From NCBI GenBank assembly GCA_944380395.1, contig CALWHM010000002.1:1526-65525 (forward strand): 64,000 nt of DNA, in the 5' to 3' direction. Origin of the DNA: an uncultured Clostridia bacterium (GTDB lineage Bacteria > Bacillota > Clostridia > Christensenellales > UBA3700). Shown in pieces: positions 9,340-45,513 of this stretch. The stretch's first letter is position 1; each line of letters starts with the position of its first letter. The notes under the pieces were generated by a model. The model worked only from the letters and a program-made list of their open reading frames with translations, did no database searches and was not told where the DNA came from. The position numbers and the translations under genes were made by a program.

Positions 9340-9360
9340 AAGCACATCAAACGGCAAAAA

Positions 9361-9398
9361 CAAATATCCACCCGCTTGGCAGGTGGATATTTTTTTTG
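9361..9398. terminator. Bidirectional rho-independent terminator (end of the permease gene and end of the 11-gene operon)
   Basis: Stem ATATCCACC (9364-9372) / GGTGGATAT (9382-9390). T-run at 9391-9398 on the + strand and an A-rich run upstream for the minus strand. Confidence 0.7.
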
Positions 9399-17870: not shown

Positions 17871-19805
17871 CTACCTGAAATTCATCGTGTGCCACACGTC
17901 TTTTATGGCGCGTTCGCAGTCGTATGCGAAAGCCTCCGCGTCCGCTTCCAGTATCTGATTGCGATAGCTGTTATACGGTTCGTCTATTTGATGATCGTAA
18001 TTGAGTATCCACTCTTCAACGCGTGAAGACGTGACGCCCAAATCGTCATAAAGCCACTTGCTCCACCCCGTGTTTTTGGCTTGGAATTGCAGCGCGTGCA
18101 TACATTCGTGCGCCACCGTGTGCACCGTTTGGGAGAAGTCCTTTTTCAGCAAGCCGTTTTTGTACTTTATCACCTGTCCGCCGTTGCAGCACACGCCCTC
18201 CGCGTCGGAAGCGCCGGGTATTCGGTCGTGAAATTCCACCCTGCCCTTTACTTCCACGCCCATCGCGCGCAGCAACAGACGGGTGGCAAGCTCCACCCTT
18301 TCCTGCTTTTCCGTAAGTTCCACGCTCTTCCATTCGGAAGCGTCCGCGCCCGCGCCGCAGCAATACGTGACCAGCATTCCGCACCGTTGATAAAAAGTGA
18401 CGGGCGCGTTCATTATGTTCTTCACGTTCGTTATATCCAGCTGCGACACGTCGTCATAGTTGAACTCCGCCTTAGTGCCCGGCACGCCGCGCACCATCTT
18501 GGAAAAGTCGCCCCAGCCGCTGTCTATAAGCTGACTTTGAGAGGGCAGTTTTTCTATGTAATCGCGCGCCTGTTCGAATCTTCCGCGCACGTGCGCCCTG
18601 ACCGCCGCGCGCCAATCCCTGTCGCGCGAACGCTCCTTTACCGCCAAATTCAGCCCCACATATCCCATAAAAGTAAGGTAGTCGCGCATAAATTTTTCGT
18701 CTTCGGCGCTGTCTTCTATCATTCCGCGCTCGCGCAAAAACTCCTTTACGTCCGTAAAGCCGGGCATTGTGAGATACCTAAAACATATGTCTTCCGCGTT
18801 TACGATAGCCGCCGCTTCCGAATACAGCTCGTGATCGCCGCTTTCGTCTATCACATATACGCGCTGCCCGCCCTTTCCGTACGCCGCCGCCTCAGCATAG
18901 ATTATCTTTTTATTCTCGCCTTCATAACCGTTAAGTCCGGTTATCATCAGCGTGGCGCCCTGCCTTGCGAATATCTCAAAGGACTTTTTCAAGCCCGCTT
19001 CGCTTCTGCCGGCAAGCGCGCTTCTTTCCAGCACATATACGGGAGAGGAACTGTTTTGCACCACGAACAGCTCCGCTTCGTCCATAAACGGAGTGCATAA
19101 AAACACCGTGCCGGGCAGGCGCTGTGACTTGTCTATCTGCGCGGTGAACTCGTAATACTTCCACTCCGTGCTCTCGCGCAGATCGCACACTCCCGATATT
19201 ATGTCCTTATTGTTTTTGCACTCCAGCTCAAAAGCCAGCTTATCGGCGAAATCATCCACCTTTTTCAGTTCGTGCAAAAGCTCCGCCTTGACGTCGGGGA
19301 ACTTCACGCCCTTGTTGAAAAGCGGGTCGGGGAAAGCTATCTTTTCTATCTCCTCCGCCTTTTTTCTGAATACCGCCTGCACCTTGCGGCACTCCTTATC
19401 GGAAGCGGTGGCGGCTTTCCACGAATAAGTGCGCACCTTGCACGCCTGTTCGTCCGCGTCGCGCATCACTTCGTCCACCTGCCTTATAAGCCGCGCCACG
19501 GCGGACAAGACTATCGCGGTTTTGGCGTATCCTTTTTGCTCGGACAGTTTTTGTTTTTGCTCGGCAAAGTCGGCAGCCGCGGCGGCGTCGCCGCTGTCAT
19601 ACCCCTCTTCAAAGTAGATAAGAGCCAGCTTTTTAGCCTGCGTGCGCCAAAGGAGCATTTCCGCTTTTTTCGCATTGTCTTCCGAAAGCCAGCTCTGCTT
19701 TAACAGCGCGGAAAGCTCCGCCTCCGCCTTTTCAAGTTCTGAGCGCGTTACGGAATAATAATATACGAAATTGGCTTTTTCAAGCTGTTCCTTTGCCGTT
19801 GCCAT
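17871..19805 (-). CDS. HExxH metallopeptidase-like protein, paralog 2
   Basis: About 644 aa. Start set at ATG 19805 (GGGGAG 5 nt upstream), whereas the track ORF begins at GTG 19811. HECMH at 18096-18110, followed by EADAEAFA. Confidence 0.55.
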   Translation of the reverse strand: MATAKEQLEKANFVYYYSVTRSELEKAEAELSALLKQSWLSEDNAKKAEMLLWRTQAKKLALIYFEEGYDSGDAAAAADFAEQKQKLSEQKGYAKTAIVLSAVARLIRQVDEVMRDADEQACKVRTYSWKAATASDKECRKVQAVFRKKAEEIEKIAFPDPLFNKGVKFPDVKAELLHELKKVDDFADKLAFELECKNNKDIISGVCDLRESTEWKYYEFTAQIDKSQRLPGTVFLCTPFMDEAELFVVQNSSSPVYVLERSALAGRSEAGLKKSFEIFARQGATLMITGLNGYEGENKKIIYAEAAAYGKGGQRVYVIDESGDHELYSEAAAIVNAEDICFRYLTMPGFTDVKEFLRERGMIEDSAEDEKFMRDYLTFMGYVGLNLAVKERSRDRDWRAAVRAHVRGRFEQARDYIEKLPSQSQLIDSGWGDFSKMVRGVPGTKAEFNYDDVSQLDITNVKNIMNAPVTFYQRCGMLVTYCCGAGADASEWKSVELTEKQERVELATRLLLRAMGVEVKGRVEFHDRIPGASDAEGVCCNGGQVIKYKNGLLKKDFSQTVHTVAHECMHALQFQAKNTGWSKWLYDDLGVTSSRVEEWILNYDHQIDEPYNSYRNQILEADAEAFAYDCERAIKDVWHTMNFR

Positions 19806-19912: not shown

Positions 19913-21463
19913 TTACATATCGTCGTCGGCAAGAGGTTTGCTGCCGCCGTAACGCAGCCTGTCTTTATCCTCTTCCGTTTCCTCTTCCTGCTCCACGGGA
20001 GTTTCTCCGAACAATTCGGCATCCAAAGTCGCCCTCGCGTCATTTTCTTGTTGTTCGTTTGTAATATCACCATAGAGTTCCTGCTGCGACATTTCTTCCA
20101 TATACATATCGGTCTGTCTTTTACTTTCGTTCATACGTCTAATTTCTTCTTGCTCCTTATTGGCTTGTGCAACAGCCCACGACCTTAGCTGCAAAAGCCC
20201 GTTTTGGAACTCTTCATACTCTTTTTGCGACATGCCGCCCGCTATAAATTGCTGCAATTTATCTATGCCCAGCCTTTTCATTGCCTCAGCGAACACTATG
20301 GGTTGATCCGCATAGCTTTTCAACTCACGCAAAATACTCCCGATATGGAACAGTCTGCTTTCTTTAATTCCTGCTCTTTGTTCAGTGGCGAAAATTTCTC
20401 TTTCCAGCTGGCTGTTTTGCAAACTGACTCTATCGCGCGTGTCCTTCACTCTCTTGGCAAATAAAGTTATCCTTTTATCTTCTGTGGACCCGGGCTTCAC
20501 TTCTCCGTTTCTTACTCGTATTGCCATAGCTCTATATTCCGCCATCATTTTGTCTACTTTGGCGTTATTCTCATCTATTTCAGCCTGCAATGCTTCCGTA
20601 TTGCTCATTGCTGCATTGGTTGCTTTTTCTCTATCGTAAAGCGCTTGCGCCGCCGCCAAACTCTCCTTCAAAGACCTTACGCCGACGATCGTCTTCTTTA
20701 TTCTGTCCACAAGAGGACTCTCTTCAAACGCGATGCTCCTCTTCTCTTCTTCGGTTACTCTATCGGTTTCTGCTTTTTTCCCAAATCCAAAGAGGCTCCT
20801 ATCTTTAGCGGCCTTTTTAAGCGTGCTCCATTCCCTGGCTTTTTCCACAGCTGCCTTAAGCTGTTTTACATGCTCAGATTCGCAAGTTGTTACCAGCCCG
20901 CATTTCATCCATTCATAAATACAATCTTCCACTTCCTCGGCTTTTTTCATTGCCGCCCTAGTGCTGTTGTCCCATACTCCGCTTACCGTCTCTCTAAGTT
21001 CTTTTAGCAGTTCAAGAGATTCGTTAAGCTTTTGATCGCTTATTTCCGTTATATGCATTTCAAGCAATGCTTTGGCGGTGTCCTCCGCCAGGTCTATATA
21101 TTTGAGTACTTCGCTTTTGATATCCATAGTTCCCTCCTTTACTTTGGGGCGTTGTATATTTTTTAAGGCGTCTTCGCGCTTGCCCTTATATTTACTCAAT
21201 TTCTTTTCTTTTTTCGGGTCGTCGAGTTCAACGGCTATGTCCATAAGATCTTTTATGACTTCTTCGTTGGCAAAACCGTCGTTCACGCCCTGTACGACCA
21301 AGCCGTATATATCTTCCACCAGGTTGTCGGAAAGCTCCTGACAGCCGTCTCCGCCGTATCCCCTTTTGATGATATTGGGGAAATCCTTATCAAAGTCTAT
21401 GCCGTTATTGCTTAGCGCGGAGCGTATCTGATTGATTTTTGCCTGCTTTTCCTCTCTATCCAT
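19913..21463 (-). CDS. Long coiled-coil protein with an acidic C-terminal tail (possible Snf7/PspA-like region in the C-terminal half)
   Basis: 516 aa with an AAGGAGG Shine-Dalgarno. E/K/Q-rich heptad sequence. The tail ETPVEQEEETEEDKDRLRYGGSKPLADDDM is strongly acidic. The gene is visibly AT-richer than its neighbours. Confidence 0.35.
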   Translation of the reverse strand: MDREEKQAKINQIRSALSNNGIDFDKDFPNIIKRGYGGDGCQELSDNLVEDIYGLVVQGVNDGFANEEVIKDLMDIAVELDDPKKEKKLSKYKGKREDALKNIQRPKVKEGTMDIKSEVLKYIDLAEDTAKALLEMHITEISDQKLNESLELLKELRETVSGVWDNSTRAAMKKAEEVEDCIYEWMKCGLVTTCESEHVKQLKAAVEKAREWSTLKKAAKDRSLFGFGKKAETDRVTEEEKRSIAFEESPLVDRIKKTIVGVRSLKESLAAAQALYDREKATNAAMSNTEALQAEIDENNAKVDKMMAEYRAMAIRVRNGEVKPGSTEDKRITLFAKRVKDTRDRVSLQNSQLEREIFATEQRAGIKESRLFHIGSILRELKSYADQPIVFAEAMKRLGIDKLQQFIAGGMSQKEYEEFQNGLLQLRSWAVAQANKEQEEIRRMNESKRQTDMYMEEMSQQELYGDITNEQQENDARATLDAELFGETPVEQEEETEEDKDRLRYGGSKPLADDDM

Positions 21464-22589
21464 TGAATCCTCCTTGCCTCACCGCATCCTCCAGCCTGGA
21501 CACGGCGTTCTTTATCGTCGTCTTATCCTTGCACATATATATATCGTCGTCAAGGAAAGTCAGATCTTCCCCCGCCCATGACTCTATAAACGCCGCGACA
21601 AGCTCATAGTCTGCGGCTGTAAGCGCCTTTCTTATTTTATCCAAGGCGAATTTTCCGTAAAAGCGATGCCCGCCCTTTTCATTAAAGAAAAACAGCCAAT
21701 AGTCGTTTTCCTCTTTCACGGAATATTGCAGATATTCGTTAAACGCCCTTTCGTTTTTCAGCGCTTCAAACGTCCCGTCGTCCACCTTTCCGTTTTCGTT
21801 TGCGGGCGCAACGGCAAGGAACACTCCACGCTTTATAAACTTGATGACGCCGTCACCTGCGGACTTGATTGCGGCAAGCGCCTTGAACTCCTCTCCGCTC
21901 AGCTTGAAAATGCCGAACAGCGGCGCCTTCTGACGGGAAAAGCACGAGCGCAATTTATCAAACGCCTGCTGCTGGGCGGAGGGCTTTACCCCGCCCGACT
22001 CTTCAACGGGCGGAATGTCCATATTAAGCTGCTTTTTTACTTTATCTGCATTGTCGTTGTAATTGAATTTTTGGATCTTGGTGAGCTCTTCGGGCGCGGA
22101 GGCAAGCATTTTGAGCATATACCTTGCCGCCCTTTCCCTCAATTTGGCAAAATCGTGCGTTTCCGTCACGTCTTTTTCCGCCTTGAACTTGTTTATATCG
22201 GCAAAGCACACCGCGCTGTAATAGGCATACGCCGCGCGGCAGCGGGATACCTCGCTCTTGTTCACCTCCGTGTAGTCCTTGTCGTAATAGTAGCCCAGGC
22301 GCACCGCTGCCTCCGGATTGCCCGTTGCGGCGGCTTCGCGCGTAAGCTCTATCGCCTTGTTCAGCATAGAGGTGTTTCTGCTCCCTTCACGGGTATGCAC
22401 GGCGGCGTCCAGCCAAGCATAATAACAGCTTTCCGCCAATTGGAATATCTGATCGTTTTCCTTTGTTATCACAAAGTCCGTCATAATATTGCCCATTATC
22501 GTTCTGCAATAGGGGCACGCCCACTCACCGTTATACAGTTCAAGGGGCTGTTCTATCACCTTATTACATTCTTTATTTTCGCAGTTCAT
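21456..22589 (-). CDS. Zn-ribbon plus Sel1/TPR-like repeat protein
   Basis: Start trimmed to ATG 22589 (AAGGAGG upstream). N-terminal CENKEC...CPYC four-Cys ribbon. Sel1-like motif GNPEAAVRLGYYYDKDY. About 200 aa of uncharacterised C-terminus. Overlaps the downstream gene by 8 nt. Confidence 0.5.
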   Translation of the reverse strand: MNCENKECNKVIEQPLELYNGEWACPYCRTIMGNIMTDFVITKENDQIFQLAESCYYAWLDAAVHTREGSRNTSMLNKAIELTREAAATGNPEAAVRLGYYYDKDYTEVNKSEVSRCRAAYAYYSAVCFADINKFKAEKDVTETHDFAKLRERAARYMLKMLASAPEELTKIQKFNYNDNADKVKKQLNMDIPPVEESGGVKPSAQQQAFDKLRSCFSRQKAPLFGIFKLSGEEFKALAAIKSAGDGVIKFIKRGVFLAVAPANENGKVDDGTFEALKNERAFNEYLQYSVKEENDYWLFFFNEKGGHRFYGKFALDKIRKALTAADYELVAAFIESWAGEDLTFLDDDIYMCKDKTTIKNAVSRLEDAVRQGGFNG

Positions 22590-22599
22590 CTGTTCCTCC

Positions 22600-25500
22600 T
22601 TATTCCGCGCCCTGCTCGCTTTCAGGCTGCGTAATGGTGAAGTCTGCGCGCACTTCGTCTGAGCTGTAATTGCCCGTGGCTTGCGCCAGCACATAATAAC
22701 TTCCCGCTTCGGAAGGCTTGCCTTCAAGCAATATATTTCCTTCCTGATTGTAATACTTGTAAGTTATGGTAGCGCTATTATCGCTTGCCGTAACTTCGGG
22801 AGCCTGCGGCGTTCCGTTTGCCGTGAACTCCGCTCCGTTGTTCTTCCAGGTGAGCGTCACCTGTTTTGCGGTTATCTCATACTTGCAGGAAGCCCCGCCT
22901 TCTATGACATAGTTTTTATTGCCCAAAGTCGCCGTGACCGTGTGGCTGCCCGCGTTCGTACCGTAACCGCTGTAAGAGATTTTCAAATCCTCCACATTCA
23001 CGCCGCCCGCGCTTTCCACCTTGGGACCTTGCGCGGAGCCGTTATATGTAAAGGTCTTGCTCTCCCACGTAAGGGTCACGCCCTTTTGCTTTATCGTGTA
23101 ACTCTTGGTCGCGCCGTCCGTTATAGTGTAATCGGAATTACCCAAGCGCGCCGTCACCGTATATTCGCCCGCGTTCGTGCCGTAACCGCTGTAAGAGATG
23201 TTCAAATCGTCCTTACCTTCGCCGTTTACCGTGCCGTTTGCGCTTGTCACCTTGGGATATTGCGCGGAGCCGTTATATGTAAAGGTCGTGCTCTCATCCC
23301 ACGTAAGGGTCACGCCCTTCTTTGCTATCGTGTAACTCTTGGTCGCGCTTGCAAGGTTATAGTTGCCGTTGCTTGTCGACGCGGTGACCGTATGATTTCC
23401 CGCATGAATGCCGCCGGATACGTTGTACGAAAGACTGCTTAACAAATTATCGGATTCTATCGCATTTTCAACTCTTGCCGCCGTAGGATATTGCCGAGAG
23501 CCGCTGTACGTAAAGCTCTCTTCCTCCCAAACCACGGTTGCGGTGCGCTTTGCAATGCTTAACGAAGCCGCTTCGCCATTGGTTATCACATAGTTTTTAT
23601 TGCCCAAAGTCGCCGTAACGGTATAGCTGCCCGCGTTCGTCACGGTGGCGCCGGAATGTGAGAGTATGCTGTAAGTGATACTCAGATCTCCAAGCTCGTG
23701 TCCGGAAGCCAAACCGCTTGCCGAAACCACGGTTATCGTCTTGCCCGTGCCGTCATAGGTGAAGGACTTCTGCGCGCTCCATTCAAGGGACACGCCGCGC
23801 TGAGTTATGGCAAACGAATGCGACGTTGCTTTAAGCGAGTAGTTAGTCATATTCAATGAAGGCGTGACCGTGTAACCGCTGCCTACGTTCGTTTGCTCTC
23901 CGCTGTACGTTATGCTGCTTATAACAAGGTCTTCTTCATCCGCCACCGCGCCGGAAACGCGCACCGCAACGGGGTGCTGAGGCGTATTGTTGTAGATAAA
24001 GCTGCTTGCGTTCCAGCCCGTCACTTCCACTTGCTTCTTGGAAATATTATAGGAATGCGACTGCGCGGAAGCAAAGTAATAGTTGCTGTTTGCCGGAAGA
24101 GTGACGCTCACGCTGCTTCCGCCCGCGTTCACGCCGCCGTTCACGGAGTATATGAGCGAAGCCAGCACGGCGGATTCTTCGCCTGTGACTGCGTCGTTCA
24201 AAGACGTGGCGCGCGGATATTGCTGCGTGCCGTTATAGGTAAATGAAGCGCTCTGCCAGCCGCCCACGGTTATATCGCGCTTGTTTATGGTCACCTGCGC
24301 CGTGGGGTTGGTCAGCACATAGTTGGCGCCCGCAGAAGCCGTGACCGTATAGCTGCCCGCGTTTACGGGGGAACCGCTCATAGTCGCGTCAAACGTGCCG
24401 TCGTCGCCCACTCCGTTCACCTTTGCGGTGGGATATTGCGCCTTTCCGTTATATTCAAAGGCGGTGGTACTGCCCCACTCCACGCTCGCCTCTGCGGGAG
24501 CAATGGTAAAGGCTTTGCTTGCGGAAGCTTCGGACACCCGATAAAGCTCGTCGCTCTCTCCCGTCACGGCTACGTATACCGTATAATTACCGGCGTTTTT
24601 CACATAGTTGCTGCCGTATGACACGGAATACTTTATCTCGTCCTCTCCCACTGCGGCGCCTTCCGCGGGCGTGCATACCGCGCTCTGTTCAACTCCCGTA
24701 TATTCGGAAGGAAGCTCCCAATCAAAGTCTATCGTCTTTTTGTCCACCGCCACTTCCACTTTCTGCGAAGTAACGCTTTTAAGGGAAGTTATCTGCGGCG
24801 CGGCGGCAGTTACCGTCACGGTATAGTTTCCGCTTTGAGCGGGAGTGAGTACGCCCAAATCAAGCGAATCGCCCGTTTCACCGCTCATAACGCCGCCGTC
24901 GTTTGACCACGCGTAAGTGAGAGTAAAGTCTTTTGACGGCGCCACGGCGTTGGAGTTGAGCACTATCTCATCTCCGTACACAAAGGACGTGCCGCCGAGA
25001 GTGGAATCCACGTTCAGCTCCGCCTCATTCACTTCCCATTGAGGATACACTATCACGGAGTTCCTGCTTGAAGCTTCACTGAGCATACTCGTAAGGGACG
25101 TGCGTATGGGTGACACCGCGCCCGTTTCCGTCCAGGAATAATTCCAGCCCGACACGGAAAAGCCCTCCCTTTGGGGAATGGAGCTTAGCAATTCGTTTGC
25201 GGTGCTGGGCACGGCGTAGCGATAGCCCAGCGTGCGCCCTTCCACCACGGTGTTCTTGTAAGAGGCGTCCGTTTCGAATACGTCGTCGTTATCCTCTCCT
25301 ATATATACCTTATATATCTTTTCAAACTGCACCTGCACGGACGCGCCGCCCTCTATCGTCTGTCCTTCTATGGCGCTGCCCGACGCGTCTAAGGGAGCGG
25401 AGAAAATGCGCCCGTCAAAGTTGACGTCGTTCCAATAAAGGTCTTCCGCGGAAGTTTTGTCCGAATGCGCCACATAGGGGAATTCGTCCTCATATGCGCT

Positions 25501-26484
25501 CATCTCGAATTTTTCGCCGTCGTCCCCTATCCAAGTGGGCAAAATTTTGCTCTCCGCCTGCTCATAGGCAGCCGCGTCGTACTTGAACGTGACGTATACC
25601 TCGCCCTTATCCAGATTGCAGGGCACGGCGCCCGCGGTGAGCGCAAACAAGCCGTCGCTTTCTTCTTTGTCCGCCGCCGCGTATGCGGAAGTGCGGAACA
25701 CGTCTATATCCTTTTTATCCACATATATGACGGGGTACGTTCCCGCGTATTCTTCAAGGGCTTCCACGCCCGTGACGGTTATTTCCGGATCCGCTTGCAG
25801 ATACACGCCGCTTATGCCCTCCTGCATAAACAGGGCGGCGTTCACGGCGCTTACGGGTTTGCCGTTGAACTCTTTGGGTATAACCGCCGTTTCGCCATTG
25901 CCTTCAAGCGCGCCGCGCACTTCATATGAATCCGTCTGACTCACATAGCTGTATGTAAGCGTGCGGTTTTCCGAACCGAACTGCTGACCGAAAACGCCGC
26001 GGTCGAAGATGAACGCGGAATAAAACGCCGCCACCAGCAATATTATCACCGTGCACGCCACCGCCGCCGCGAAGGAAATGCCCTTCATTTTGGCTGCGTA
26101 CAGGGAAGATATCACAATGACAGCCACCGTAGCAATATGCAACACCAGCCAAAGCGCCATTGCCGCCGTTGTGAGGGGAGAACCGGAGCCTGCGTCGCGG
26201 CAGAGCACCACGCCCAGCACGGCGCACAGCAGCGCGAGCAGCGCATAGCCTGCAAACAGCGCCGCGGAGTAGCGGAAGCGGAAGTTGGTTATCGCCGTCA
26301 AAGCTATGAACACCGCGTCCAGCGCCAGCAATAGCGCGGGGATCACGAAGTAAACGGGTTCAAAGCCGCCCACTCCCAGCGCGGTTATGACGAATATGTC
26401 CGCCAGCGCGGCGGCAGCCGCGGCAATTATTATCGGCCACTTGCGGCTTTTCAATGTTTTTTCCGTATAAGTGGATGCTCTCAT
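22600..26484 (-). CDS. Polytopic-membrane-anchored giant surface protein with about 10 MBG/Ig-like repeats
   Basis: 1294 aa. Five hydrophobic helices in the first ~165 aa, which predicts an outside C-terminus. Repeated ~80-aa modules follow, with the signature F(T/I)YNG..Q.P ... NAG.YTVTA..GN.NY. The start ATG overlaps the upstream stop (ATGA at 26481-26484). Confidence 0.7.
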   Translation of the reverse strand: MRASTYTEKTLKSRKWPIIIAAAAAALADIFVITALGVGGFEPVYFVIPALLLALDAVFIALTAITNFRFRYSAALFAGYALLALLCAVLGVVLCRDAGSGSPLTTAAMALWLVLHIATVAVIVISSLYAAKMKGISFAAAVACTVIILLVAAFYSAFIFDRGVFGQQFGSENRTLTYSYVSQTDSYEVRGALEGNGETAVIPKEFNGKPVSAVNAALFMQEGISGVYLQADPEITVTGVEALEEYAGTYPVIYVDKKDIDVFRTSAYAAADKEESDGLFALTAGAVPCNLDKGEVYVTFKYDAAAYEQAESKILPTWIGDDGEKFEMSAYEDEFPYVAHSDKTSAEDLYWNDVNFDGRIFSAPLDASGSAIEGQTIEGGASVQVQFEKIYKVYIGEDNDDVFETDASYKNTVVEGRTLGYRYAVPSTANELLSSIPQREGFSVSGWNYSWTETGAVSPIRTSLTSMLSEASSRNSVIVYPQWEVNEAELNVDSTLGGTSFVYGDEIVLNSNAVAPSKDFTLTYAWSNDGGVMSGETGDSLDLGVLTPAQSGNYTVTVTAAAPQITSLKSVTSQKVEVAVDKKTIDFDWELPSEYTGVEQSAVCTPAEGAAVGEDEIKYSVSYGSNYVKNAGNYTVYVAVTGESDELYRVSEASASKAFTIAPAEASVEWGSTTAFEYNGKAQYPTAKVNGVGDDGTFDATMSGSPVNAGSYTVTASAGANYVLTNPTAQVTINKRDITVGGWQSASFTYNGTQQYPRATSLNDAVTGEESAVLASLIYSVNGGVNAGGSSVSVTLPANSNYYFASAQSHSYNISKKQVEVTGWNASSFIYNNTPQHPVAVRVSGAVADEEDLVISSITYSGEQTNVGSGYTVTPSLNMTNYSLKATSHSFAITQRGVSLEWSAQKSFTYDGTGKTITVVSASGLASGHELGDLSITYSILSHSGATVTNAGSYTVTATLGNKNYVITNGEAASLSIAKRTATVVWEEESFTYSGSRQYPTAARVENAIESDNLLSSLSYNVSGGIHAGNHTVTASTSNGNYNLASATKSYTIAKKGVTLTWDESTTFTYNGSAQYPKVTSANGTVNGEGKDDLNISYSGYGTNAGEYTVTARLGNSDYTITDGATKSYTIKQKGVTLTWESKTFTYNGSAQGPKVESAGGVNVEDLKISYSGYGTNAGSHTVTATLGNKNYVIEGGASCKYEITAKQVTLTWKNNGAEFTANGTPQAPEVTASDNSATITYKYYNQEGNILLEGKPSEAGSYYVLAQATGNYSSDEVRADFTITQPESEQGAE
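22630..25000 (-). repeat. Intragenic tandem repeats encoding MBG-like modules
   Basis: About 240-bp units. The youngest copies are near-identical at the DNA level, for example CCGTAACCGCTGTAAGAGAT at ~22960 and ~23180, and ACGTAAGGGTCACGCCCTT at ~23060 and ~23300. Confidence 0.7.
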
Positions 26485-28163
26485 TTGTTACCTCCTTTCC
26501 CCGCGTTGCTGCGCTTGTATTCGCTGCTGAGCACAGGCGCGGGCAGGTATCCTTCTTTTTCCATATTCTTTTTATCGAAGATATACTTATCTCCGCCCAT
26601 AAAGAATATGATGAGTTCGTTGTCTTCATTGCACAGCTTTTTCTTTCCCAAATACCTGAGGCGGGTAAACGGGGAGAACATTCCGCGATATTTGACATAC
26701 CGCTTTCTTGCCTCTTCCGTGCTCTTGGCGGACGCGCACAGTTCGCACCTGCCCGCACTGTCCAGCGCGGCATTTGTGAATATTCTGCCGCAGCAGGAGC
26801 ACGCCTGCGTTTCTTCCTTTACGGTCATAGTCATCTTGTCGCGGGTGAAGCTCATATCCGGGGTAAAGTGAATGCGCCCTTCCGCGTCCTCAAACGCAAC
26901 TTCCGGATAAGGGCAGTCCGTGCATATCCACTTCGGCTCGTCCGGCGTGCCCGCGTTTATCATCTGCGCGTCGCATACACAGCGCTTGCAATCGCGGTTG
27001 ATACGCGGAACGTTTTTGCATTCCTTGCTTTGCAGGTGTTTTCCTATCTGACTGTATTTGATTATCTTTTCTATCTGCTCGGACGTAAGACCCAGATTTT
27101 CCGCGTCGGGATTTATCCTTATATCTTCCTTGTGCACTCTGCCGCCGTTGTCCGTATATCTGCACGATATGACGTTGTTGTCCATCAATTTTACGGTATG
27201 CCCGTTCACGCACATAAGCGTAACACCGCCGTTCATACCCACAAGGGCGCTGAGCGCGGGCTTGCCGTCGTGATACACGAAAAACGCGGAGTTTGTCCAG
27301 CGCACGTGCGATATTCCCAGCACGCTTATATTGCGGCACTCCAGGAAAGCGTCGTCGTGCGAGAGCTTTTCCGTAAGTTCGCCTATTATCTTTTCGTCCG
27401 TCTCCCCGAACCTGACGCATTCGTCAAAGGAATAGCTCATCTTTCCTTTGAGCAGTTTTTCCAAAGCGTTGAGCACGTCGTCTATAAGATGCGAAGACTC
27501 CGTCTTTTCCGCCCTCCCTGCGGCGCTTCTTTCGGGAATCACCTTATAAAGGCTGTCGTATATTCCCCTTGCCTCCGCTTCTATGACGGGTTCGAGTTCC
27601 GCGCTTGCCGCGCGCTTGCGGAAGTACACGCTGCACAACACGGGAACGGACGCGCCCGTGCCGCCGGACATCTCCGCTTTAAGGGAAATGCCGTATATGT
27701 CGTCGGACACGTTTTTGTCTTTCGCGGCGGATATGGCGGAACCTTTGAGCAGCGGGAAGAATATCTCCACCACTTTTTCCAGCACGACGCGGCACTTTTC
27801 CTTATCCGCATCGTTCATTGCCTTTTCCGGCTGTTTGAATTCCAGCAGGGAATACTCGTTATGATACGCCCTTGCCACGCTTTCTATAAAGCTCAGCCAT
27901 TGCGCGGTGCCGTCGCCCGCGCCCGCGTTACCCGTGCGCAGCGTTTCAAACCAGCTTGCGCCCTCGCCTGTGAAGCGCATCGCCCTGCCGCTTTGTTCGG
28001 AAGAAGCGCTTGCCGAATATACAAATTCGTGAGTGGCGGTGACTATGCGTCCGTCCTTCACTTCCCTGACGTTCACCTTGTCAAAGGGCACGCTTTCGCC
28101 GAGCAGTTTACACACGCTCTCAAACGCTTTTTCGTACTCTTTTCCGATCACTATCCTATCCAT
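26481..28163 (-). CDS. Hypothetical protein with C-terminal CxxC zinc-ribbon clusters
   Basis: 560 aa. Cys clusters CKRCVC...CTDCPYP and CSCCGRIF...CELC in the C-terminal third. No family recognised. 5-nt gap to the upstream SNF2 gene. Confidence 0.5.
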   Translation of the reverse strand: MDRIVIGKEYEKAFESVCKLLGESVPFDKVNVREVKDGRIVTATHEFVYSASASSEQSGRAMRFTGEGASWFETLRTGNAGAGDGTAQWLSFIESVARAYHNEYSLLEFKQPEKAMNDADKEKCRVVLEKVVEIFFPLLKGSAISAAKDKNVSDDIYGISLKAEMSGGTGASVPVLCSVYFRKRAASAELEPVIEAEARGIYDSLYKVIPERSAAGRAEKTESSHLIDDVLNALEKLLKGKMSYSFDECVRFGETDEKIIGELTEKLSHDDAFLECRNISVLGISHVRWTNSAFFVYHDGKPALSALVGMNGGVTLMCVNGHTVKLMDNNVISCRYTDNGGRVHKEDIRINPDAENLGLTSEQIEKIIKYSQIGKHLQSKECKNVPRINRDCKRCVCDAQMINAGTPDEPKWICTDCPYPEVAFEDAEGRIHFTPDMSFTRDKMTMTVKEETQACSCCGRIFTNAALDSAGRCELCASAKSTEEARKRYVKYRGMFSPFTRLRYLGKKKLCNEDNELIIFFMGGDKYIFDKKNMEKEGYLPAPVLSSEYKRSNAGKGGNK

Positions 28164-28168
28164 AAGCG

Positions 28169-30958
28169 TTACTCCGTCCTATCGTTTGCCAAGATGGCTT
28201 TAATGTCCGCGACCTTGTTGGCTTCCGCCAGCAGATTGTCGCAGAACGCCTTGCCGCCGTCAAATTCGTACTTCCAAGCCGCGCGAATGTAAGTGGCAAA
28301 GGTGCGCGCCACAATGGGTCTTAACGTGCCTTTCCCGCAGGAAGGGCACTTGGCTTCCCACTTGTCGTTGAACGCAAGCACGTGCGGGCGGGGATAGCAC
28401 TCCGCCTGATCGCACCTTGAACAGCTCTCAATGGCGTCCTTGCCCTGCCCCCATCTGCATTCGTCGGGGCATTCGTAACGGTTGGGGCAGGTGCTGCACA
28501 GCATTCCCAGATCCGCCACGCTGACGGCGGGATTGTCCTTGTATGCGGCAAGCACCGGACACCAGCCCTCCTTTTTTTCTTCCATTTTCTTGAAGAAGCG
28601 GCAGTGCGACATAGCGCACAGTTTGCTGCAATATACGCTCCTGTCCCCCGCTTCCCCGCTGTTGCACATTATGCCGCGCGAGTTGTTGTTTGCGGAGATA
28701 CACATATATCCTTCTTCCGTGACCGAACGGGTAAACACCTTATCGCAGTCACTGCACTTAAAGTCGTATACGCTTATCTCCTCCATAAGCGTGCCCTTGG
28801 GGTCGTCCTCGCGGCAGCGCGGCGTTTCCTTGCAGTAAAGCTCCCCGTTCTTCTTTTTGACTTCATAGTCTTCCAAAGAATACAGTTTTACGCTTCTGCA
28901 CACCGGACAGCGGACGGTGACCATTCGCTCACTGTTACTGCCCGCTATAATGGTGGCGTCCCCGCTGTTGCTGGACATAATGCCTATGCGCAGGAAGTAC
29001 ATCAGCACATAGCCTTCCAGCTTGTTCATATCCGCAAGCGAATATATGTAAACGTTCTTTTCGTCCTGTCCCAGGCGGAACACCCTGCCTATTCGCTGAT
29101 CCATAGACAGCGGGTCCGGGGTCACTTCAAAATTTATTATCGTGCTGGATTTCTGCAGGTTCACGCCCTCTGTAAAGGAAGGGTCCTCCACCACGAGTAT
29201 GGCGTCCTGTTTTTCGTTGAACGCCCTTACCGTTTCGTTCTTTTTGACGGCGCCGCCCGCAAGCAGCCTGCCCTTGAACTCCTTATCCTTTTTCAGTTCC
29301 TCTTCAAAGCGCTTTGCCACGGCGGCAGGGTCTTTCACGTCATAGTCGAAGAACACCAGCACGCGCTTGTCCTTGTGCTTTTTCAATATCTCTTTGACCA
29401 CCGCCATTTTATGCGCAAAGCTGTCCGGTTCGAACTTGAACGGCATAAGCCTGTAATGCGCCTCTTCGGGATTGATGTTGATCATCTGACCGCCGTAGTA
29501 TGTGCCCGAATTTTGCTTGAACATACTCTCCGGCATGCCCACTTTATTCATAATATGCGTGCTTAAAAATTCCGCATAAGCCTGCGCAAAGCCCCTGTTT
29601 CCGCGCACGTCGTCCAGATATTTTTTCAAAGACATCTTGGTGCCGTCGCTTATCTCCACCGCGCCTTCCGCGTAAAGGTTGGCAAGGTCCACCTTTATCT
29701 TGTCCCCCGCCAAACCTTCCGTCTGCAAAATGCCCGGCTCTTTTTCCATAGGGAAGAACAGGTAGTTTTGCAGCACCTTCTTCTTGGCTATGGAATTGGG
29801 CTGACGTATCATAATGGAGCGCAGCACGCCGTTGTGATAAGCGCTTGCCACGCGTTCGAGCACGGCGTTTCTTATCCCTTCGTCACTCTCCAAAAACTGC
29901 TGCACTTTAAGGAACTTTTCGCCCTCCGGCAGGGACTTGAAGTCGGTGCTTTCTTTATTCTTCTTCAAAAAGTTTTTGAAGGCGGGCATATGGTCTTCTT
30001 CCACCACCTTCACCTTTACCCTTTTGATAAACTCCATAACGGTGGTGGCGCCGTAACACACGTGGTTTTTGTAATACTCCTTCTCCTTGCGGTACTGTTC
30101 CGTGCGCTTGGAATCGTCCTTCTCGTCAAAGTCGGACGGATTGCCGCCGCCGCAGCGGATAAAGTACCACAGGCGGAACATATTCTCCAAATTGCCCGTG
30201 TGCGGCGTTGCCGAAAGCAGCAGGCAGTAAGTGGAGTTTTCCTGCTTTTTGGTCTGTATCATAAGTGAGAGCAGCTTCATAGCCTTGGCGTATCTGCCCT
30301 CCTCCGCGCAAAGGTGGTGCGCTTCGTCCACCACTATTACGTCAAACAGCAGTCTTTGCGTGTCCTCATGCCACAGGGCAAAGTCCTCCGCCTTTACTAT
30401 GATGGGCTTGGACGGGCGCAGAATATTGCCGCCCAGCGCCTTGCAGTCCAAATCGGCGATGTCCATATCCGCGCCCGCTTCCAGGAGCGCGTCCTTTCCC
30501 AGACCGAACTGCATTTCCAGCACGCTCTTCCACGTGTCGTACACCTGATCGGGCACGATGAGCAGCAAAGAGCGCAGCTTGCCCCTTGCGGCAAGTTCGC
30601 TCAAAACCACGCACGCTTCATAAGTCTTGCCGCTGCCCACCACGTCCGCAAGCAGTCCGAAGCCGCGCAGATCTCTCAAAAACGAGAGCGCCGCCACGCG
30701 CTGATGACTCAAAATGACGTCATCGTTAAAGCCCAGCCTGACGGGCACGCCGTATTGGGAATCCGCCTGCTTTTTATAAGTGAGCGGGTCTATTTTGAAA
30801 AAGCCGAAGTCGTCGTATCTGTCCAGCTCTTCCACGGACTTGTTGGCGTCGTACACCTGCCTGTCAAACGACTTTTTGGTCGTGGCGATATTCGACCTTT
30901 GCACATCTCTGTCAAAGGCGTGATCGTCCACTTTTATTTTGAAATTCCTATCTGCCAT
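28169..30958 (-). CDS. SNF2-family (SF2) helicase/translocase with a multi-zinc-ribbon C-terminal region
   Basis: Motif I ADVVGSGKT, motif II VVDEAHHL, SATPHTGN, and helicase-C QRIGRVFRLGQ. The last ~260 aa contain more than 25 Cys in CxxC-type pairs. Start set at ATG 30958, since the track ORF starts at a TTG at 30985 inside the upstream gene. Confidence 0.8.
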   Translation of the reverse strand: MADRNFKIKVDDHAFDRDVQRSNIATTKKSFDRQVYDANKSVEELDRYDDFGFFKIDPLTYKKQADSQYGVPVRLGFNDDVILSHQRVAALSFLRDLRGFGLLADVVGSGKTYEACVVLSELAARGKLRSLLLIVPDQVYDTWKSVLEMQFGLGKDALLEAGADMDIADLDCKALGGNILRPSKPIIVKAEDFALWHEDTQRLLFDVIVVDEAHHLCAEEGRYAKAMKLLSLMIQTKKQENSTYCLLLSATPHTGNLENMFRLWYFIRCGGGNPSDFDEKDDSKRTEQYRKEKEYYKNHVCYGATTVMEFIKRVKVKVVEEDHMPAFKNFLKKNKESTDFKSLPEGEKFLKVQQFLESDEGIRNAVLERVASAYHNGVLRSIMIRQPNSIAKKKVLQNYLFFPMEKEPGILQTEGLAGDKIKVDLANLYAEGAVEISDGTKMSLKKYLDDVRGNRGFAQAYAEFLSTHIMNKVGMPESMFKQNSGTYYGGQMININPEEAHYRLMPFKFEPDSFAHKMAVVKEILKKHKDKRVLVFFDYDVKDPAAVAKRFEEELKKDKEFKGRLLAGGAVKKNETVRAFNEKQDAILVVEDPSFTEGVNLQKSSTIINFEVTPDPLSMDQRIGRVFRLGQDEKNVYIYSLADMNKLEGYVLMYFLRIGIMSSNSGDATIIAGSNSERMVTVRCPVCRSVKLYSLEDYEVKKKNGELYCKETPRCREDDPKGTLMEEISVYDFKCSDCDKVFTRSVTEEGYMCISANNNSRGIMCNSGEAGDRSVYCSKLCAMSHCRFFKKMEEKKEGWCPVLAAYKDNPAVSVADLGMLCSTCPNRYECPDECRWGQGKDAIESCSRCDQAECYPRPHVLAFNDKWEAKCPSCGKGTLRPIVARTFATYIRAAWKYEFDGGKAFCDNLLAEANKVADIKAILANDRTE

Positions 30959-30965
30959 CGTCCTC

Positions 30966-33107
30966 TCACTCTCCCGATATATCAAAGTCTTCCATTCCCA
31001 CGAACTTAAGTTCTATGTCCGTGGCAGGCACCTCTTCCGTTTTGCCCCATATCTCCGGGGATTCGGATATAAGTTTTGCTATTCTCACCTTTTTTCTTTC
31101 GCTCGCCTTCTCCAGATTCCCGATGATGGGAGTGGCGCAGCCGTCCTTATCCACTATTACGCCTTCTTCGTAAGCAACCTGGCTGTGTATAAGCTTTACT
31201 CTCGTGCCCTTGTAATAATAGTAGATCACGGAATCCCTGCCGCCCGACACCACTTTCAAGCCCGCGCGCTCCGCCAAATGCTTTCTGCGCGCCGCCGCAA
31301 TGACCTGGTTTTTCGAATGCTCGAGAAACACATGCCAAGCGTTGTATCTTTTGAAACTTTGCTTTTTGAGTACCGGATCGTTCTGCGCAAGATAGTCCAG
31401 CTGCTGTTTGGATATGGGCAGGGAGAATATCTCATCTCCTACGGTCCTTGGAGAGTCTTCGTTTTCAAGCCCCACGTTGCCTTTCGCGGTAAGCGCTTCG
31501 CCTTCCTTTATCACCTGCCCTTTGTCCGCTATCCATTCCAATACTTTATGCCCGAACATATCGTGCTCTTCTTGGCTGTTGCGATTGTAACGAGGGTAGA
31601 ACCAGGTGGCGTAGGACAGAGAAAGGCGGGTCTTTACCTCTATATCATCCATAGCGACTATCGCCGCGCCCACGGCGGCGGCATATGTGGAATCCTCATA
31701 AGAGGCTATGGTAAAGCCGTCCTTATCCGTCTTTTCGTCGTCAAAGGTTATTATCTCTATTTTTTTCGAAAACGCCTTTTTTAAGGCGGTATCTATGTAT
31801 TGAAGCAGACCGTAAGTTTCGGCAAGTCCGCCCGATATTATTATCTTATGCACGTCGGAGTTTATCTGCAGGGAAAGCTCGTTTATTATGTAGTCGGCTA
31901 TCTCCTTGGCTACGCCCTGCACCCTTTGGGTTATGCCTATGCTGGCAACAAAGTCCTCGCGCGTGAGCTTGCGCTGTATGCGCAGGTCCCTGACCATATT
32001 CACGGGCACGCCTTCGGGGAAGATGTCCTTGCTTTCGGGCATACTGTGCAGTATTTTCGCCTTCTTTATGTCCTTCATAAAAAGGTACTGCTTTTCCCTG
32101 AGTCCCCTTTCCACTATATGTCCCAGCTGACCGGAAGAAGGCGTTCCCACCGTTTCCCTGTCACTTATCGTGCCTTCCATAAAATCGGCTACCGCCCTGT
32201 CCACGTCGTTGCCGCCCACTTTGCAGGGGGCGCTGTGACCGTCCGCGCCGTCTATCACCAGCTCTCCGTCCGTCTCCACGTTGGCGCGGGTGACGGAAAT
32301 GTCCGTTTCTCCCAAGTCGAACACGAGTGCGGAATCCCCGTCGGAGATCACTTTGCGGTACTTGGCGTAAATGCTCAGCGCCCTTGTGGAACTGAGCGAC
32401 TTGTCGGGAGTAATGCCGAACGCCTTTTCAGTGAGGCGGGACAGCTCCGTCTGATAGTCCTTGCTTGCGCCGGAGGGATACACCACCGCTATTTTCATAT
32501 TGTCGGAAAACTCCGCCTCGCCCGCGCCGCGCAGACCGTTGCGCACAAGCTCGCTTCCCTTCTTCTGAAGTTCCGCCACGTCCTTGCGCATCTTCTTTTC
32601 CAGCTCGCGAATGCGGCTCTTTATAAGTTTGGCGGCGTATTCGAAAAACATCTCACACACGCGGCGAGGAGTGTCGTCCGCGTCGAAAGTCATCTTTCCG
32701 TCCACCATCTCATTGAAATCGGCGAGCATCTCCCTGCTCACGGGGAAGTAGAATTTGGGAAATTTTTTGCCTTCGCGGTAAAAACGCATATTGCGCGCGC
32801 GAATGGAAACAGCCTGCTTTCTGCCGCCGTTTTCCGACTGCACCGCGGCAAGAAGGTTGAGCAAAGATTTGATCTTTACAACCGTGGCGAAAGAAGCGTT
32901 GTTCCCCTTGTCCACATCGTAGCCGAACTTCCACGTTCTGCGCTGTTCGTCAAAATGGGCTATTGCGGGAATAGCGACCTCCGTGGGCAGCAATTTGCGC
33001 GCTATCTTACCGTAAAAAACCGCGCCCGTCTGCGCTACGTCAAAAGCGTAAGCCACTTTCAAAGTGTCGCTGCCAAGGTCCAAAGCTATGTTCAAATCAA
33101 TGGTCAT
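30966..33107 (-). CDS. Hsp70/actin-fold ATPase (divergent DnaK-like) with an uncharacterised C-terminal domain
   Basis: 713 aa. Phosphate-1 LDLGSDTLKVAY, phosphate-2 VFDLGETDISVT, VGGNDVD, and adenosine motif IIISGGLAE. GGGGG Shine-Dalgarno. First gene of the operon. Confidence 0.75.
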   Translation of the reverse strand: MTIDLNIALDLGSDTLKVAYAFDVAQTGAVFYGKIARKLLPTEVAIPAIAHFDEQRRTWKFGYDVDKGNNASFATVVKIKSLLNLLAAVQSENGGRKQAVSIRARNMRFYREGKKFPKFYFPVSREMLADFNEMVDGKMTFDADDTPRRVCEMFFEYAAKLIKSRIRELEKKMRKDVAELQKKGSELVRNGLRGAGEAEFSDNMKIAVVYPSGASKDYQTELSRLTEKAFGITPDKSLSSTRALSIYAKYRKVISDGDSALVFDLGETDISVTRANVETDGELVIDGADGHSAPCKVGGNDVDRAVADFMEGTISDRETVGTPSSGQLGHIVERGLREKQYLFMKDIKKAKILHSMPESKDIFPEGVPVNMVRDLRIQRKLTREDFVASIGITQRVQGVAKEIADYIINELSLQINSDVHKIIISGGLAETYGLLQYIDTALKKAFSKKIEIITFDDEKTDKDGFTIASYEDSTYAAAVGAAIVAMDDIEVKTRLSLSYATWFYPRYNRNSQEEHDMFGHKVLEWIADKGQVIKEGEALTAKGNVGLENEDSPRTVGDEIFSLPISKQQLDYLAQNDPVLKKQSFKRYNAWHVFLEHSKNQVIAAARRKHLAERAGLKVVSGGRDSVIYYYYKGTRVKLIHSQVAYEEGVIVDKDGCATPIIGNLEKASERKKVRIAKLISESPEIWGKTEEVPATDIELKFVGMEDFDISGE

Positions 33108-33138: not shown

Positions 33139-33167
33139 ATTCTAACACGATTCGACAATTAAGTCAA
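33139..33167 (-). promoter_or_regulatory. Near-consensus sigma-A promoter of the 11-gene operon
   Basis: The minus strand reads TTGACT (33162-33167), 17-nt spacer, TGtTAGAAT (-10 at 33139-33144). An A/T-rich UP-like tract lies upstream. About 30 nt from the ATG at 33107. Confidence 0.6.
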
Positions 33168-42198: not shown

Positions 42199-42210
42199 TA
42201 CAGACCCCCA

Positions 42211-43332: not shown

Positions 43333-43333
43333 A

Positions 43334-44559: not shown

Positions 44560-44592
44560 AAAATAACCTCCCCCGTATTATTGAATATTATA

Positions 44593-45471: not shown

Positions 45472-45499
45472 CAAAAAAGAGGAAGTCTCCCTTCCTCTT
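45472..45499 (-). terminator. Rho-independent terminator of the 45514..46353 gene
   Basis: The minus strand reads AGAGGAAG-GGAGA-CTTCCTCT followed by TTTTTT (the plus-strand A-run at 45473-45478). Confidence 0.6.
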
Positions 45500-45513
45500 T
45501 CTGCCCTTACTTT

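Follow-up and report, generated by a model that had tools for sequence, protein, structure and literature searches.

Among the described systems closest to the locus reported here are the CoCoNuTs, predicted immune operons in which a lid-poor Hsp70 unit, made of a nucleotide-binding domain (NBD) and a substrate-binding domain (SBD), occurs with a UPF1-like helicase, coiled coils and a Cdc48-like ATPase (PMC11090510). They are defined by a McrB-like GTPase with an NxD motif and its McrC/DUF2357 partner (PMC11090510). In type III CoCoNuTs the Hsp70-like NBD/SBD protein is CnuD; it is accompanied by CnuH, which joins a UPF1-like helicase to a Vsr-like domain, by the coiled-coil protein CnuA and, optionally, by a Cdc48/SpoVK-like ATPase (PMC11090510). 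That paper was the sole precedent found in a literature search for Hsp70 with SNF2, with DUF4011 or with defence, and for ProA/ProB. The present analysis concerns a minus-strand operon in a stretch of 64,000 nucleotides (nt) from an uncultured Clostridia bacterium (assembly GCA_944380395.1, contig CALWHM010000002.1, positions 1,526 to 65,525), hereafter the window. The operon is headed by the genes of an Hsp70-derived protein and an SNF2-family ATPase.

We judge the chances to be about even that this Hsp70 descendant, which has neither lid nor chaperone partners, is the ATP switch of a membrane-anchored complex that also comprises an adhesin-like sensor, an SNF2 translocase with a 22-cysteine module and a Cdc48-like unfoldase. 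Such a complex would be undescribed, ancient and vertically inherited, and would act either in envelope-triggered immunity or in a transaction linking the envelope to nucleic acid.

An Hsp70 derivative paired with an SNF2 ATPase

A preliminary description of the window, made by reading the sequence, had proposed that the 713-residue product of the leading gene is an Hsp70-fold protein carrying four nucleotide-binding motifs. All four motifs lie in this open reading frame (Table 1), and structure prediction agrees with the assignment. The AlphaFold2 model has a predicted local distance difference test score (pLDDT) of 89.8 and a predicted TM-score (pTM) of 0.89. When compared with the Protein Data Bank (PDB) by Foldseek, the model matched full-length Hsp110, DnaK, BiP and Hsc70 at the top of the list, with E values of 3.6e-19 to 1e-14 and a probability of 1.00. 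As modelled, the protein is a member of the Hsp70 superfamily at the level of the fold. The residues conserved across the family in the phosphate-1, phosphate-2 and adenosine motifs are D10, G12, D14, K17, K78, D264, G298, G299, D303, G426, G427 and E430, with D264 replaced by Asn in 14% of the members. The sequence of the window protein matched no Pfam family at E ≤ 0.01, and thus lies below the Pfam HSP70 gathering score; it matched no PDB sequence at E ≤ 10 and no PADLOC model. Its sole NCBIfam match, to anhydro-MurNAc kinase (E 0.0046), another enzyme of the ASKHA fold, was set aside as fold-level noise. A profile built from 50 homologues meets DnaK at only E 0.012, across the phosphate-2 motif.

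The sequence of E. coli DnaK used in the comparisons was entered by hand. Aligned by eye, the position equivalent to DnaK E171 is Ser/Thr in the family (LSSTKAL vs INEPTAA), and the hydrophobic interdomain linker of DnaK is lost in the window protein. In hhalign, the family profile and DnaK were aligned with the two halves of the fold misaligned, and the profile of the C-terminal domain aligned with nothing in the DnaK SBD.

The C-terminal region had been described as about 270 residues of unknown sequence, in a protein with no recognisable DnaK substrate-binding domain. Both statements have to be revised, and the region is read here as a β-rich domain of 228 residues (486–713) derived from the Hsp70 SBD. 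Modelled alone, the domain reached a pLDDT of 92.6. The Foldseek search proposed for it in the preliminary description returned no significant PDB structure (best E 0.11); DnaK and Hsp70 SBDs recur among the weak matches (E 0.5–1.5, TM-score ~ 0.3) and have the highest probabilities there. The distant members of the family are more informative. Three of them, P0367, P0368 and P0371 (520–557 residues), score 68, 48 and 22 bits against Pfam HSP70, for which the cut-off is 20.6. In BLASTP, P0367 aligns with DnaK at 25% identity over 367 residues, reaching DnaK residue 483, and this protein, from locus L089, retains the SEPTA/EPTA motif including the E171 equivalent. Descent of the C-terminal domain from the β-sandwich part of the SBD (SBDβ) is likely because the alignments of these members to HSP70 and DnaK run through residue 483. 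The window protein itself keeps recognisable landmarks, matched by eye: VKTxLSLSY corresponds to DVTPLSLG, and EGxxVDxxGxAxP to VTFDIDADGIL. Since the landmarks are retained and the distant members align with the DnaK SBDβ, the C-terminus is assigned as a probable, heavily altered SBDβ with insertions. The helical lid is absent, and the AlphaFold2 model finishes in β-strands. In sequence, the short forms encoded at loci L088 and L089 bridge the canonical Hsp70s and the strongly altered window protein.

None of the operon proteins contains the HPD motif of J-domains, and none matches DnaJ or GrpE in Pfam. By its Pfam HSP70 score, its lack of a lid and its lack of J-protein or GrpE partners, the window protein falls outside the canonical DnaK-type chaperones.

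The second gene encodes an SNF2 helicase, as first described: its ATG at 30958 lies 7 nt past the Hsp70-like stop codon (30966–30968), and the reported motor motifs are present. Pfam identifies SNF2-rel_dom, ResIII and Helicase_C. The closest family models are DrmD (1e-32), DpdE (4.5e-29) and BrxHI/II (2.9e-26), within an overall range of 1e-32 to 1e-23, at scores far under the family cut-offs (DrmD, 113 bits vs 610; DpdE, 101 vs 500). ZorD models match weakly (PADLOC, 3.1e-10; NCBIfam, 0.0015).

The SNF2 protein ends in a cysteine-rich tail. It was initially credited with more than 25 cysteines in its last ~ 260 residues; the tail stands, with a corrected count of 22 in the final ~ 245 residues and 28 in the whole protein. 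Numbered from the ATG at 30958, the tail cysteines occupy positions 684/687, 709/715, 735/738, 753, 765, 777/781/786, 800, 821/824/830/834, 846/849/854, 871/874 and 906. Each is retained in 93–100% of 75 orthologues, as is one histidine. In an alignment of 31 tail sequences the mean column identity is 49%, and the cysteine columns are invariant or nearly so; given this difference, the conservation of the cysteines is far beyond chance. The cysteine-rich tail is kept even by the remotest members, L088 and L089, with 29–31 cysteines across the whole protein. The spacing of the cysteines is thus conserved among homologues, which is the part of the earlier zinc-ribbon proposal that is borne out. 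Matches to ribbon families cover parts of the tail only, and all are weak and below the gathering thresholds (Zn_ribbon_8 in 15 of the 31 members, best E 0.0091; Zn_ribbon_3, 2.5e-4). No Pfam family was matched above threshold by the tail, and no sequence relative was found in the PDB. The tail may be a metal-binding module, for zinc or for iron-sulphur (Fe-S) clusters, in which case the central cysteine clusters would be possible Fe-S ligands. With every one of its 22 cysteine positions conserved, it represents a new putative metal-binding module on an SNF2 enzyme.

Operon architecture, distribution and other components

The predicted transcription unit spans 9362–33167 on the minus strand (~ 24 kb) and contains eleven genes of ten families, with the Hsp70-like and SNF2 pair leading. 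The family order is Hsp70-like, SNF2, 560-residue Cys-rich, membrane, zinc-ribbon/Sel1, coiled-coil, HExxH (two copies), superfamily 1 (SF1) helicase, second coiled-coil and AAA. Junctions between the genes measure 5–15 nt or overlap by up to 8 nt, apart from one gap of ~ 100 nt. Because the junctions are tight or overlapping and the span includes one promoter-like site and one strong terminator, the genes from Hsp70-like to AAA are assigned to a single operon. The promoter-like site, a consensus match only, agrees with the consensus at 10 of 12 positions, where ~ 0.7 such sites are expected by chance; it sits past the hairpin and T-run that follow the carB-dapF stop codon. GGGGGA precedes the Hsp70-like ATG at 33107. 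At the 3′ end the unit closes with the terminator-like hairpin. Genes of ~ 190 codons found 3′ of the AAA gene in L080 and L082 were considered as additional parts and rejected; they encode mutually unrelated membrane proteins, and the window has no counterpart.

A profile of the Hsp70-like family searched against 1.84 billion proteins returned 224 clusters at 50% identity (202 at E ≤ 1e-10), and no ordinary Hsp70 scored at E ≤ 0.001. The Hsp70-like protein does not group with ordinary chaperone paralogues that occur without this neighbourhood: the SNF2 gene directly follows the Hsp70-like gene in every sufficiently long context, at Hsp70 identities down to 26–27%. The species survey used one genome per species in GTDB and yielded 75 loci encoding an Hsp70-like relative; its counts cover operon-bearing genomes only. 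The 75 loci belong to uncultured animal-gut Clostridia, among them Borkfalkia, Coproplasma, Alloclostridium, Protoclostridium, Limadaptatus, Pumilibacteraceae and bins labelled Christensenella. The order of the first block on one strand (Hsp70-like, SNF2, 560-residue, membrane, Sel1 and ~ 500-residue coiled-coil) is the same in 79/79 loci with enough sequence, from ~ 75 species genomes. Linkage of this block to the operon's second half is seen in 15 further contigs (L080–L082, L084–L087, L093–L095, L098, L102, L104, L106 and L116). The most distant loci that keep the block are L088, L089 and L111. The Hsp70-like proteins of L088 and L089 are 26–27% identical to that of the window, and L089 comes from a non-gut metagenome, with the operon beside rnc-smc-ftsY. 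Pairwise identities of the Hsp70-like, SNF2 and 560-residue proteins co-vary (r 0.93–0.95, 2211 pairs), which indicates that the genes are inherited as a unit, within a single clade of Clostridia from guts and anaerobic settings.

Variants delimit the core. In two metagenome lineages, L101 (7713–9976) and L112 (5166–7434), the ~ 500-residue coiled-coil gene is followed by the small coiled-coil and AAA genes, with no HExxH and no DUF4011 SF1-helicase gene, and so these two families form an optional module. The predicted invariant core consists of eight families: Hsp70-like, SNF2, 560-residue, membrane, Sel1, two coiled-coil and AAA. The original characterisation as an operon of helicases is correct in that SNF2 and SF1 helicases are present; it understates the contents, since the core also includes a membrane protein and a Cdc48-like AAA protein and the SF1 helicase is optional. 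A permuted and expanded arrangement occurs at L111 (236–15177), in the order FtsK, small coiled-coil, AAA, CvpA-like, Hsp70-like, RNA-ligase-family, SNF2, 560-residue and membrane. The position of the RNA-ligase gene, between those for the Hsp70-like protein and SNF2, possibly points to a role connected with RNA. At L113 (10013–11020) an AAA orthologue, 63% identical, stands without the other operon genes; its neighbours encode an LRR_5/Flg_new surface protein, a double-zinc-ribbon protein, SbcCD and an AAA_13 ATPase. The SNF2, SF1 and AAA proteins all retain their Walker and motor motifs. With the Hsp70 derivative, four predicted motor types are united in one co-inherited operon.

Table 1 Features of the operon and its short Hsp70-like relatives (window positions, except in the last row).
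Feature	Position	Strand	Description
Promoter-like site	33139..33167	(-)	TTGACT, 17-nt spacer, TAGAAT, extended TG; upstream of the Hsp70-like gene
Hsp70-derived protein	30966..33107	(-)	713 residues; NBD 1 to ~485, altered SBDβ-like β-sandwich 486-713
SNF2-family ATPase	28169..30958	(-)	929 residues; motor intact (GSGKT, DEAHH, SATP, QRIGR)
Cys-rich C-terminal module of the SNF2 protein	28169..28966	(-)	22 conserved Cys and one conserved His
Cys-rich protein	26481..28163	(-)	560 residues; N-terminal part with no recognised fold; C-terminal CxxC pairs 414/417, 455/458, 473/476
Membrane protein	22600..26484	(-)	1294 residues; about five N-terminal transmembrane helices (residues 15-166, from hydropathy), large Ig-like/MBG-repeat region
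Zinc-ribbon/Sel1 protein	21456..22589	(-)	377 residues; N-terminal four-Cys ribbon, Sel1-like repeat(s) ~70-124, conserved C-terminus without a recognised fold
Larger coiled-coil protein	19913..21463	(-)	516 residues, rich in charged residues; sixth gene of the conserved first block
HExxH protein 1	17871..19805	(-)	644 residues; invariant C-terminal HExxHxxQ...ExDA (zincin-like); first of the tandem paralogues
HExxH protein 2	15963..17861	(-)	632 residues; 35% identical to the 644-residue paralogue
UPF1-like SF1 helicase	11418..15947	(-)	1509 residues; DUF4011 region, C-terminal MTES_1575/Vsr-like domain (Pfam)
Small coiled-coil protein	10631..11404	(-)	257 residues, rich in charged residues; always immediately before the AAA gene
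AAA ATPase	9460..10617	(-)	385 residues, classic clade; single Cdc48/VAT D2-like domain; Walker A/B, YVG pore loop
Terminator-like hairpin	9362..9392	(-)	14-bp stem and T-run; between the AAA gene and the convergent permease gene
Short Hsp70-like family members	L088 525-2198; L089 10001-11563		within the same operon; pass the Pfam HSP70 threshold

The remaining proteins are listed in Table 1. The 560-residue protein has 12 conserved cysteines, of which nine, like His376, do not vary in an alignment of 30 sequences; it resembles an eL43-type zinc ribbon weakly (E 0.0085) and matched nothing in Pfam, PADLOC or NCBIfam. NCBIfam likewise returned nothing for the membrane, Sel1, coiled-coil and HExxH proteins. 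The operon encodes a single membrane protein. It matches Pfam MBG_3, its N-terminus is positively charged, and its start codon overlaps with the stop of the gene before it. Its Ig-like/MBG repeat region presumably lies on the outer side of the cell. Orthologues were recognised in 66–69 loci for the membrane domain and the two proximal external segments and in 47 for the MBG-repeat region, at ~ 30% identity. In the Sel1 protein, which starts with the ATG at 22589, C3, C8, C25 and C28 are present in 92% of 48 orthologues and invariant in an alignment of 27. The profile of these 27 orthologues matched Sel1-repeat proteins of the PDB over residues 58–124 (E 7e-5 to 8e-3), by which the protein counts as carrying Sel1-type repeats, one or two only. 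Conserved four-cysteine motifs thus recur in the SNF2 tail, the 560-residue protein and the Sel1 protein, just as the preliminary description had noted.

The two charged proteins, of 516 and 257 residues, are both probably coiled coils; the former has no family match. In the HExxH proteins, HExxHxxQ and ExDA are invariant among 9 aligned sequences, and the family matches are weak and below cut-off (overall E 0.014–0.1): SprT-like (E 0.014–0.038), M90 and M48. The tandem duplication is confined to the window and its close relatives L084 and L092, and a single copy occurs in L080, L082 and L085–L087. The SF1 helicase has its Walker A motif at residue 316 and Walker B at residue 1100, separated by a ~ 780-residue insertion. 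It matches ProA (6e-113) and Hhe (6.5e-80) in NCBIfam and PDC-S37 (5.9e-112) in PADLOC, below the curated cut-offs (ProA, 379 bits vs 1500; Hhe, 269 vs 2000). The AAA ATPase is assigned to Pfam AAA and AAA_lid_3. Its nearest PDB relatives are VAT (8.5e-67) and p97 (1e-58), with the D2 domain nearest, and it matches the PADLOC model of IetA at 1.2e-32. Of all the operon proteins it is the best conserved. Its orthologues are 54–87% identical, after which identity falls abruptly to ≤ 37%, and this step ties the AAA clade to the operon. A Vps4/ESCRT-III type of pair formed by the AAA and small coiled-coil proteins was considered and rejected, as the AAA protein is nearest to the Cdc48/VAT D2 domain and neither coiled-coil protein matches Snf7 or PspA.

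The operon is flanked on one side by carA/carB-dapF and on the other by a convergent xanthine/uracil permease gene (7252–9339, plus strand); the rest of the window contains housekeeping and polysaccharide genes. Scans for Rfam elements (riboswitches included), tRNAs and genes revealed no integrase, transposase, tRNA, Rfam element or tRNA integration site in the window. In other genera the flanks differ and are again housekeeping genes (carAB, rnc-smc-ftsY, rpoBC and tRNA synthetases across loci). No Hsp70-like relative was found in collections of viral contigs, phage genomes and plasmids. Two congeners carry the operon at the same locus. Compared with these, the flanking genes of the window are highly similar (glnA and carB-dapF 96%, carA 86–88% identity), and the operon proteins less so: SNF2 71–75%, Hsp70-like 58%, 560-residue 56–59% and membrane protein 51%. 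The more distant relative L084 has a flanking permease 61% and an AAA protein 83% identical to those of the window; the AAA proteins of other relatives reach 86–87%, within an overall range of 70–87%. The GC content of the operon is ~ 52–55%, matching the flanks, except for a dip to 46% at 20001–22000, which takes in the coiled-coil gene and the last part of Sel1; the genes under the dip also diverge fastest.

Several other features of the window were recorded. The carB gene is fused in frame to a full diaminopimelate epimerase (DapF) domain (33332–37381, minus strand, 1349 residues). The fusion is full-length, at 96% identity, in the two congeners (L005 and L006), and the carB homologue of L073 aligns to residues 1–1048 only, the carB part. 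At ~ 42000–46000 the GC content falls to 42–43%, against ~ 52–55% elsewhere in the window. This segment encodes a pentapeptide-repeat protein (42211–43332), a guanylate-kinase-like protein (43334–43972) and an AAA_33/zeta-toxin-like kinase (43957–44559), and could have been acquired as a small island. Positions 503–1696 (plus strand), at the window's left edge, encode a dGTP triphosphohydrolase-like protein with HD and HD_assoc domains, from a family that includes both housekeeping and anti-phage enzymes. The open reading frame at 8092–9363 (minus strand, 423 codons) is antisense to the permease gene, of low complexity and rich in His, Gly and Arg, and is almost certainly not a gene.

Possible roles of the operon

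Function and order of events are what we infer from the observed folds, motifs, conservation, gene order, boundaries and distribution. In the proposed mechanism, the five-helix membrane protein with its external adhesin-type repeats would anchor the complex at the envelope and possibly sense events there. The zinc-ribbon/Sel1, 560-residue Cys-rich and coiled-coil proteins would serve as scaffolds. The SNF2 motor would move along double-stranded nucleic acid, its metal-binding tail docking it to nucleic acid or to partners. The Hsp70 derivative would act as a dedicated ATP-controlled clamp and not as a general chaperone, with the β-sandwich gripping a segment of a partner or invader and gating the motor. 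The Cdc48-like AAA unfoldase and its coiled-coil partner would reset the complex or take it apart. In operons that include them, the HExxH protein and the UPF1-like helicase that bears the Vsr-like domain would add an effector arm.

The operon is tentatively read as a membrane-anchored machine that watches or acts on foreign nucleic acid at the envelope, that is, as an immune-type (conflict) system. This role is favoured because the nearest relatives of both nucleic-acid motors are defence proteins (DrmD, BrxH and DpdE for SNF2; ProA, Hhe and PDC-S37 for SF1), because the AAA protein also matches a defence component, IetA, and because CoCoNuT CnuD provides a precedent. A number of observations weigh against it. 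No system-level match to the operon was found in PADLOC, NCBIfam or Pfam; with CnuD as the only literature precedent, the Hsp70-SNF2 pairing stands outside described pathways, as had been suspected from the start. PADLOC has no model matching the Hsp70-like, 560-residue, membrane, Sel1, coiled-coil or HExxH proteins. The distribution is untypical of defence: the operon is single-copy and clade-wide, with housekeeping flanks, no integrase or transposase nearby and no phage, plasmid or viral copies. The most defence-like component, the SF1 helicase with its Vsr-like domain, is optional, and inspection by eye revealed no canonical nuclease motif. Neither a methyltransferase nor another marker of self and non-self was found in the operon. 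Fast evolution relative to the flanks was rejected as strong evidence of conflict, the flanking permease being as diverged as the operon proteins; with the L084 permease at 61% and the AAA protein at 83–87% identity, the signal is only modest.

Much of this would be expected if the operon were instead a lineage-specific housekeeping machine coupling the envelope to one of the cell's own nucleic-acid transactions, such as DNA uptake or export, cell-to-cell DNA exchange by way of the adhesin-type repeats, or remodelling of chromosome or transcription at the membrane, in which the Hsp70 derivative and the Cdc48-like AAA would help to build the complex and take it apart. We regard this, the main rival, as possible, if somewhat doubtful. 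About 75 species genomes and distant anaerobic-digester lineages carry the block as one chromosomal copy, flanked in every case by housekeeping genes, and its components co-diverge as vertical inheritance predicts. Copies on phages, plasmids and viruses are absent from the collections searched, the base composition is that of the flanks apart from the 46% GC dip at 20–22 kb, and the AAA protein is strongly conserved. The eight-family core that is always kept has no recognisable nuclease, the helicase arm with the Vsr-like domain being optional. However, Pfam and NCBIfam detected no ComEC, FtsK, VirB4, VirD4 or relaxase in the operon and no part of a competence, conjugation, segregation or secretion apparatus; the two nucleic-acid motors have defence proteins as closest relatives, the non-motor proteins diverge quickly, and the clade-wide presence is known from operon-bearing genomes only. 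It is unlikely that the operon comprises independent modules that happen to be co-located, namely an Hsp70/SNF2/Cys-rich/membrane unit, an Hhe-like helicase with HExxH proteins, and the AAA protein with its coiled-coil partner. This arrangement would account for the loss of the HExxH and SF1-helicase pair in L101 and L112, for the relocation of the coiled-coil/AAA pair upstream of the Hsp70 gene in L111 and for the solitary AAA orthologue of L113, and Hhe-type helicases are single-gene defence systems, going by NCBIfam and PADLOC family names. Nonetheless, the AAA/coiled-coil pair is still linked to the Hsp70-SNF2 block, rearranged or not, in all examined loci but L113, the genes lie 5–15 nt apart or overlap inside one promoter-to-terminator span, and the identity step of the AAA orthologues (≥ 54% to ≤ 37%) ties that clade to the operon. 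An ordinary chaperone paralogue of the DnaK, HscA, HscC or YegD type beside an unrelated helicase gene would explain the Hsp70 fold and the distant members that pass Pfam HSP70, yet it is contradicted and very improbable: the family amounts to just 224 clusters among 1.84 billion proteins, with no ordinary Hsp70 at E ≤ 0.001, neither Pfam nor the PDB yields a sequence match to the window protein, the SNF2 gene comes next in each context with enough sequence even at 26–27% identity, and the protein has no lid and no J-protein encoded in the operon.

Should the block function as a single machine, it would provide a clear example from nature of an Hsp70 repurposed from folding into a component of a nucleic-acid motor complex, and a new design among the large bacterial multi-ATPase systems, combining four motor types with a sensor-like external protein. 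The range of family members, from short DnaK-like forms to long and highly altered ones, offers a natural route to understanding how the allostery of Hsp70 is rewired. The operon occupies more than 1% of the probably small genomes of abundant, uncultured animal-gut bacteria and is, for this reason, probably important to the biology of these bacteria.

Comparison with described systems

The canonical and atypical Hsp70s (DnaK, Hsp110, HscC and YegD) share with the window protein the NBD fold, the order of NBD followed by β-sandwich, and the conserved phosphate-binding and adenosine-binding motifs. The window protein differs from them in having no α-helical lid, in the insertions in its β-sandwich and, by eye, in the Ser at the E171 site and the loss of the linker.

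By the family models, the operon corresponds to none of the systems DISARM, BREX, Dpd, CoCoNuT, Zorya and Hhe/ProA as they are defined. DISARM DrmD, BREX BrxHI/BrxHII and Dpd DpdE, the nearest relatives of the SNF2 core, are all motors of large anti-phage operons. Models of DISARM DrmB, DrmC and methyltransferase match 0/11 proteins of the operon, and the sole DrmA match (6e-17) is the SNF2 protein itself. Among the BREX models just BrxHI/II match, again the SNF2 protein, with no match to PglX, PglZ, BrxC or any other; of Dpd, the DpdE models alone match, with no DpdA or DpdB. The Hhe, ProA and PDC-S37 proteins have the same architecture as the SF1 helicase (DUF4011 SF1 helicase and MTES_1575/Vsr-like domain), with strong similarity over both the helicase and the C-terminal domain. 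The window helicase differs in scoring under the cut-offs and in being an optional gene of a ten-family operon, not a stand-alone system. Zorya likewise encodes a membrane component with a cytoplasmic SNF2 motor, the membrane ZorAB signalling to the SNF2-type ZorD. In contrast, the window operon has no MotAB/ZorAB-like proteins and no fused Mrr nuclease, and its membrane protein is a five-helix anchor with adhesin-type repeats.

The type III CoCoNuTs, as described, resemble the window operon in overall composition. Like the window operon, they have a dedicated Hsp70-derived NBD/SBD protein with degenerate catalytic motifs, the likeness to CnuD being one of description only. Both also have an SF1 helicase of the UPF1-like kind that carries a large helical insertion behind Walker A and ends in a Vsr-like domain, as well as proteins with coiled coils and with zinc ribbons, the ribbons being putative in the window operon; a Cdc48-like AAA ATPase is shared with some CoCoNuT variants. 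No operon protein matches McrB, an AAA_5-type GTPase or DUF2357 in Pfam, which places the operon outside the CoCoNuT definition; the McrB-like GTPase/McrC pair, HEPN, the cold-shock domain and the TerY-P module are all absent. Unlike the CoCoNuTs, the window operon encodes an SNF2 motor with a putative multi-metal tail and a membrane protein. The folds of its parts are known; across the literature and databases searched, their assembly is an undescribed multi-ATPase system.

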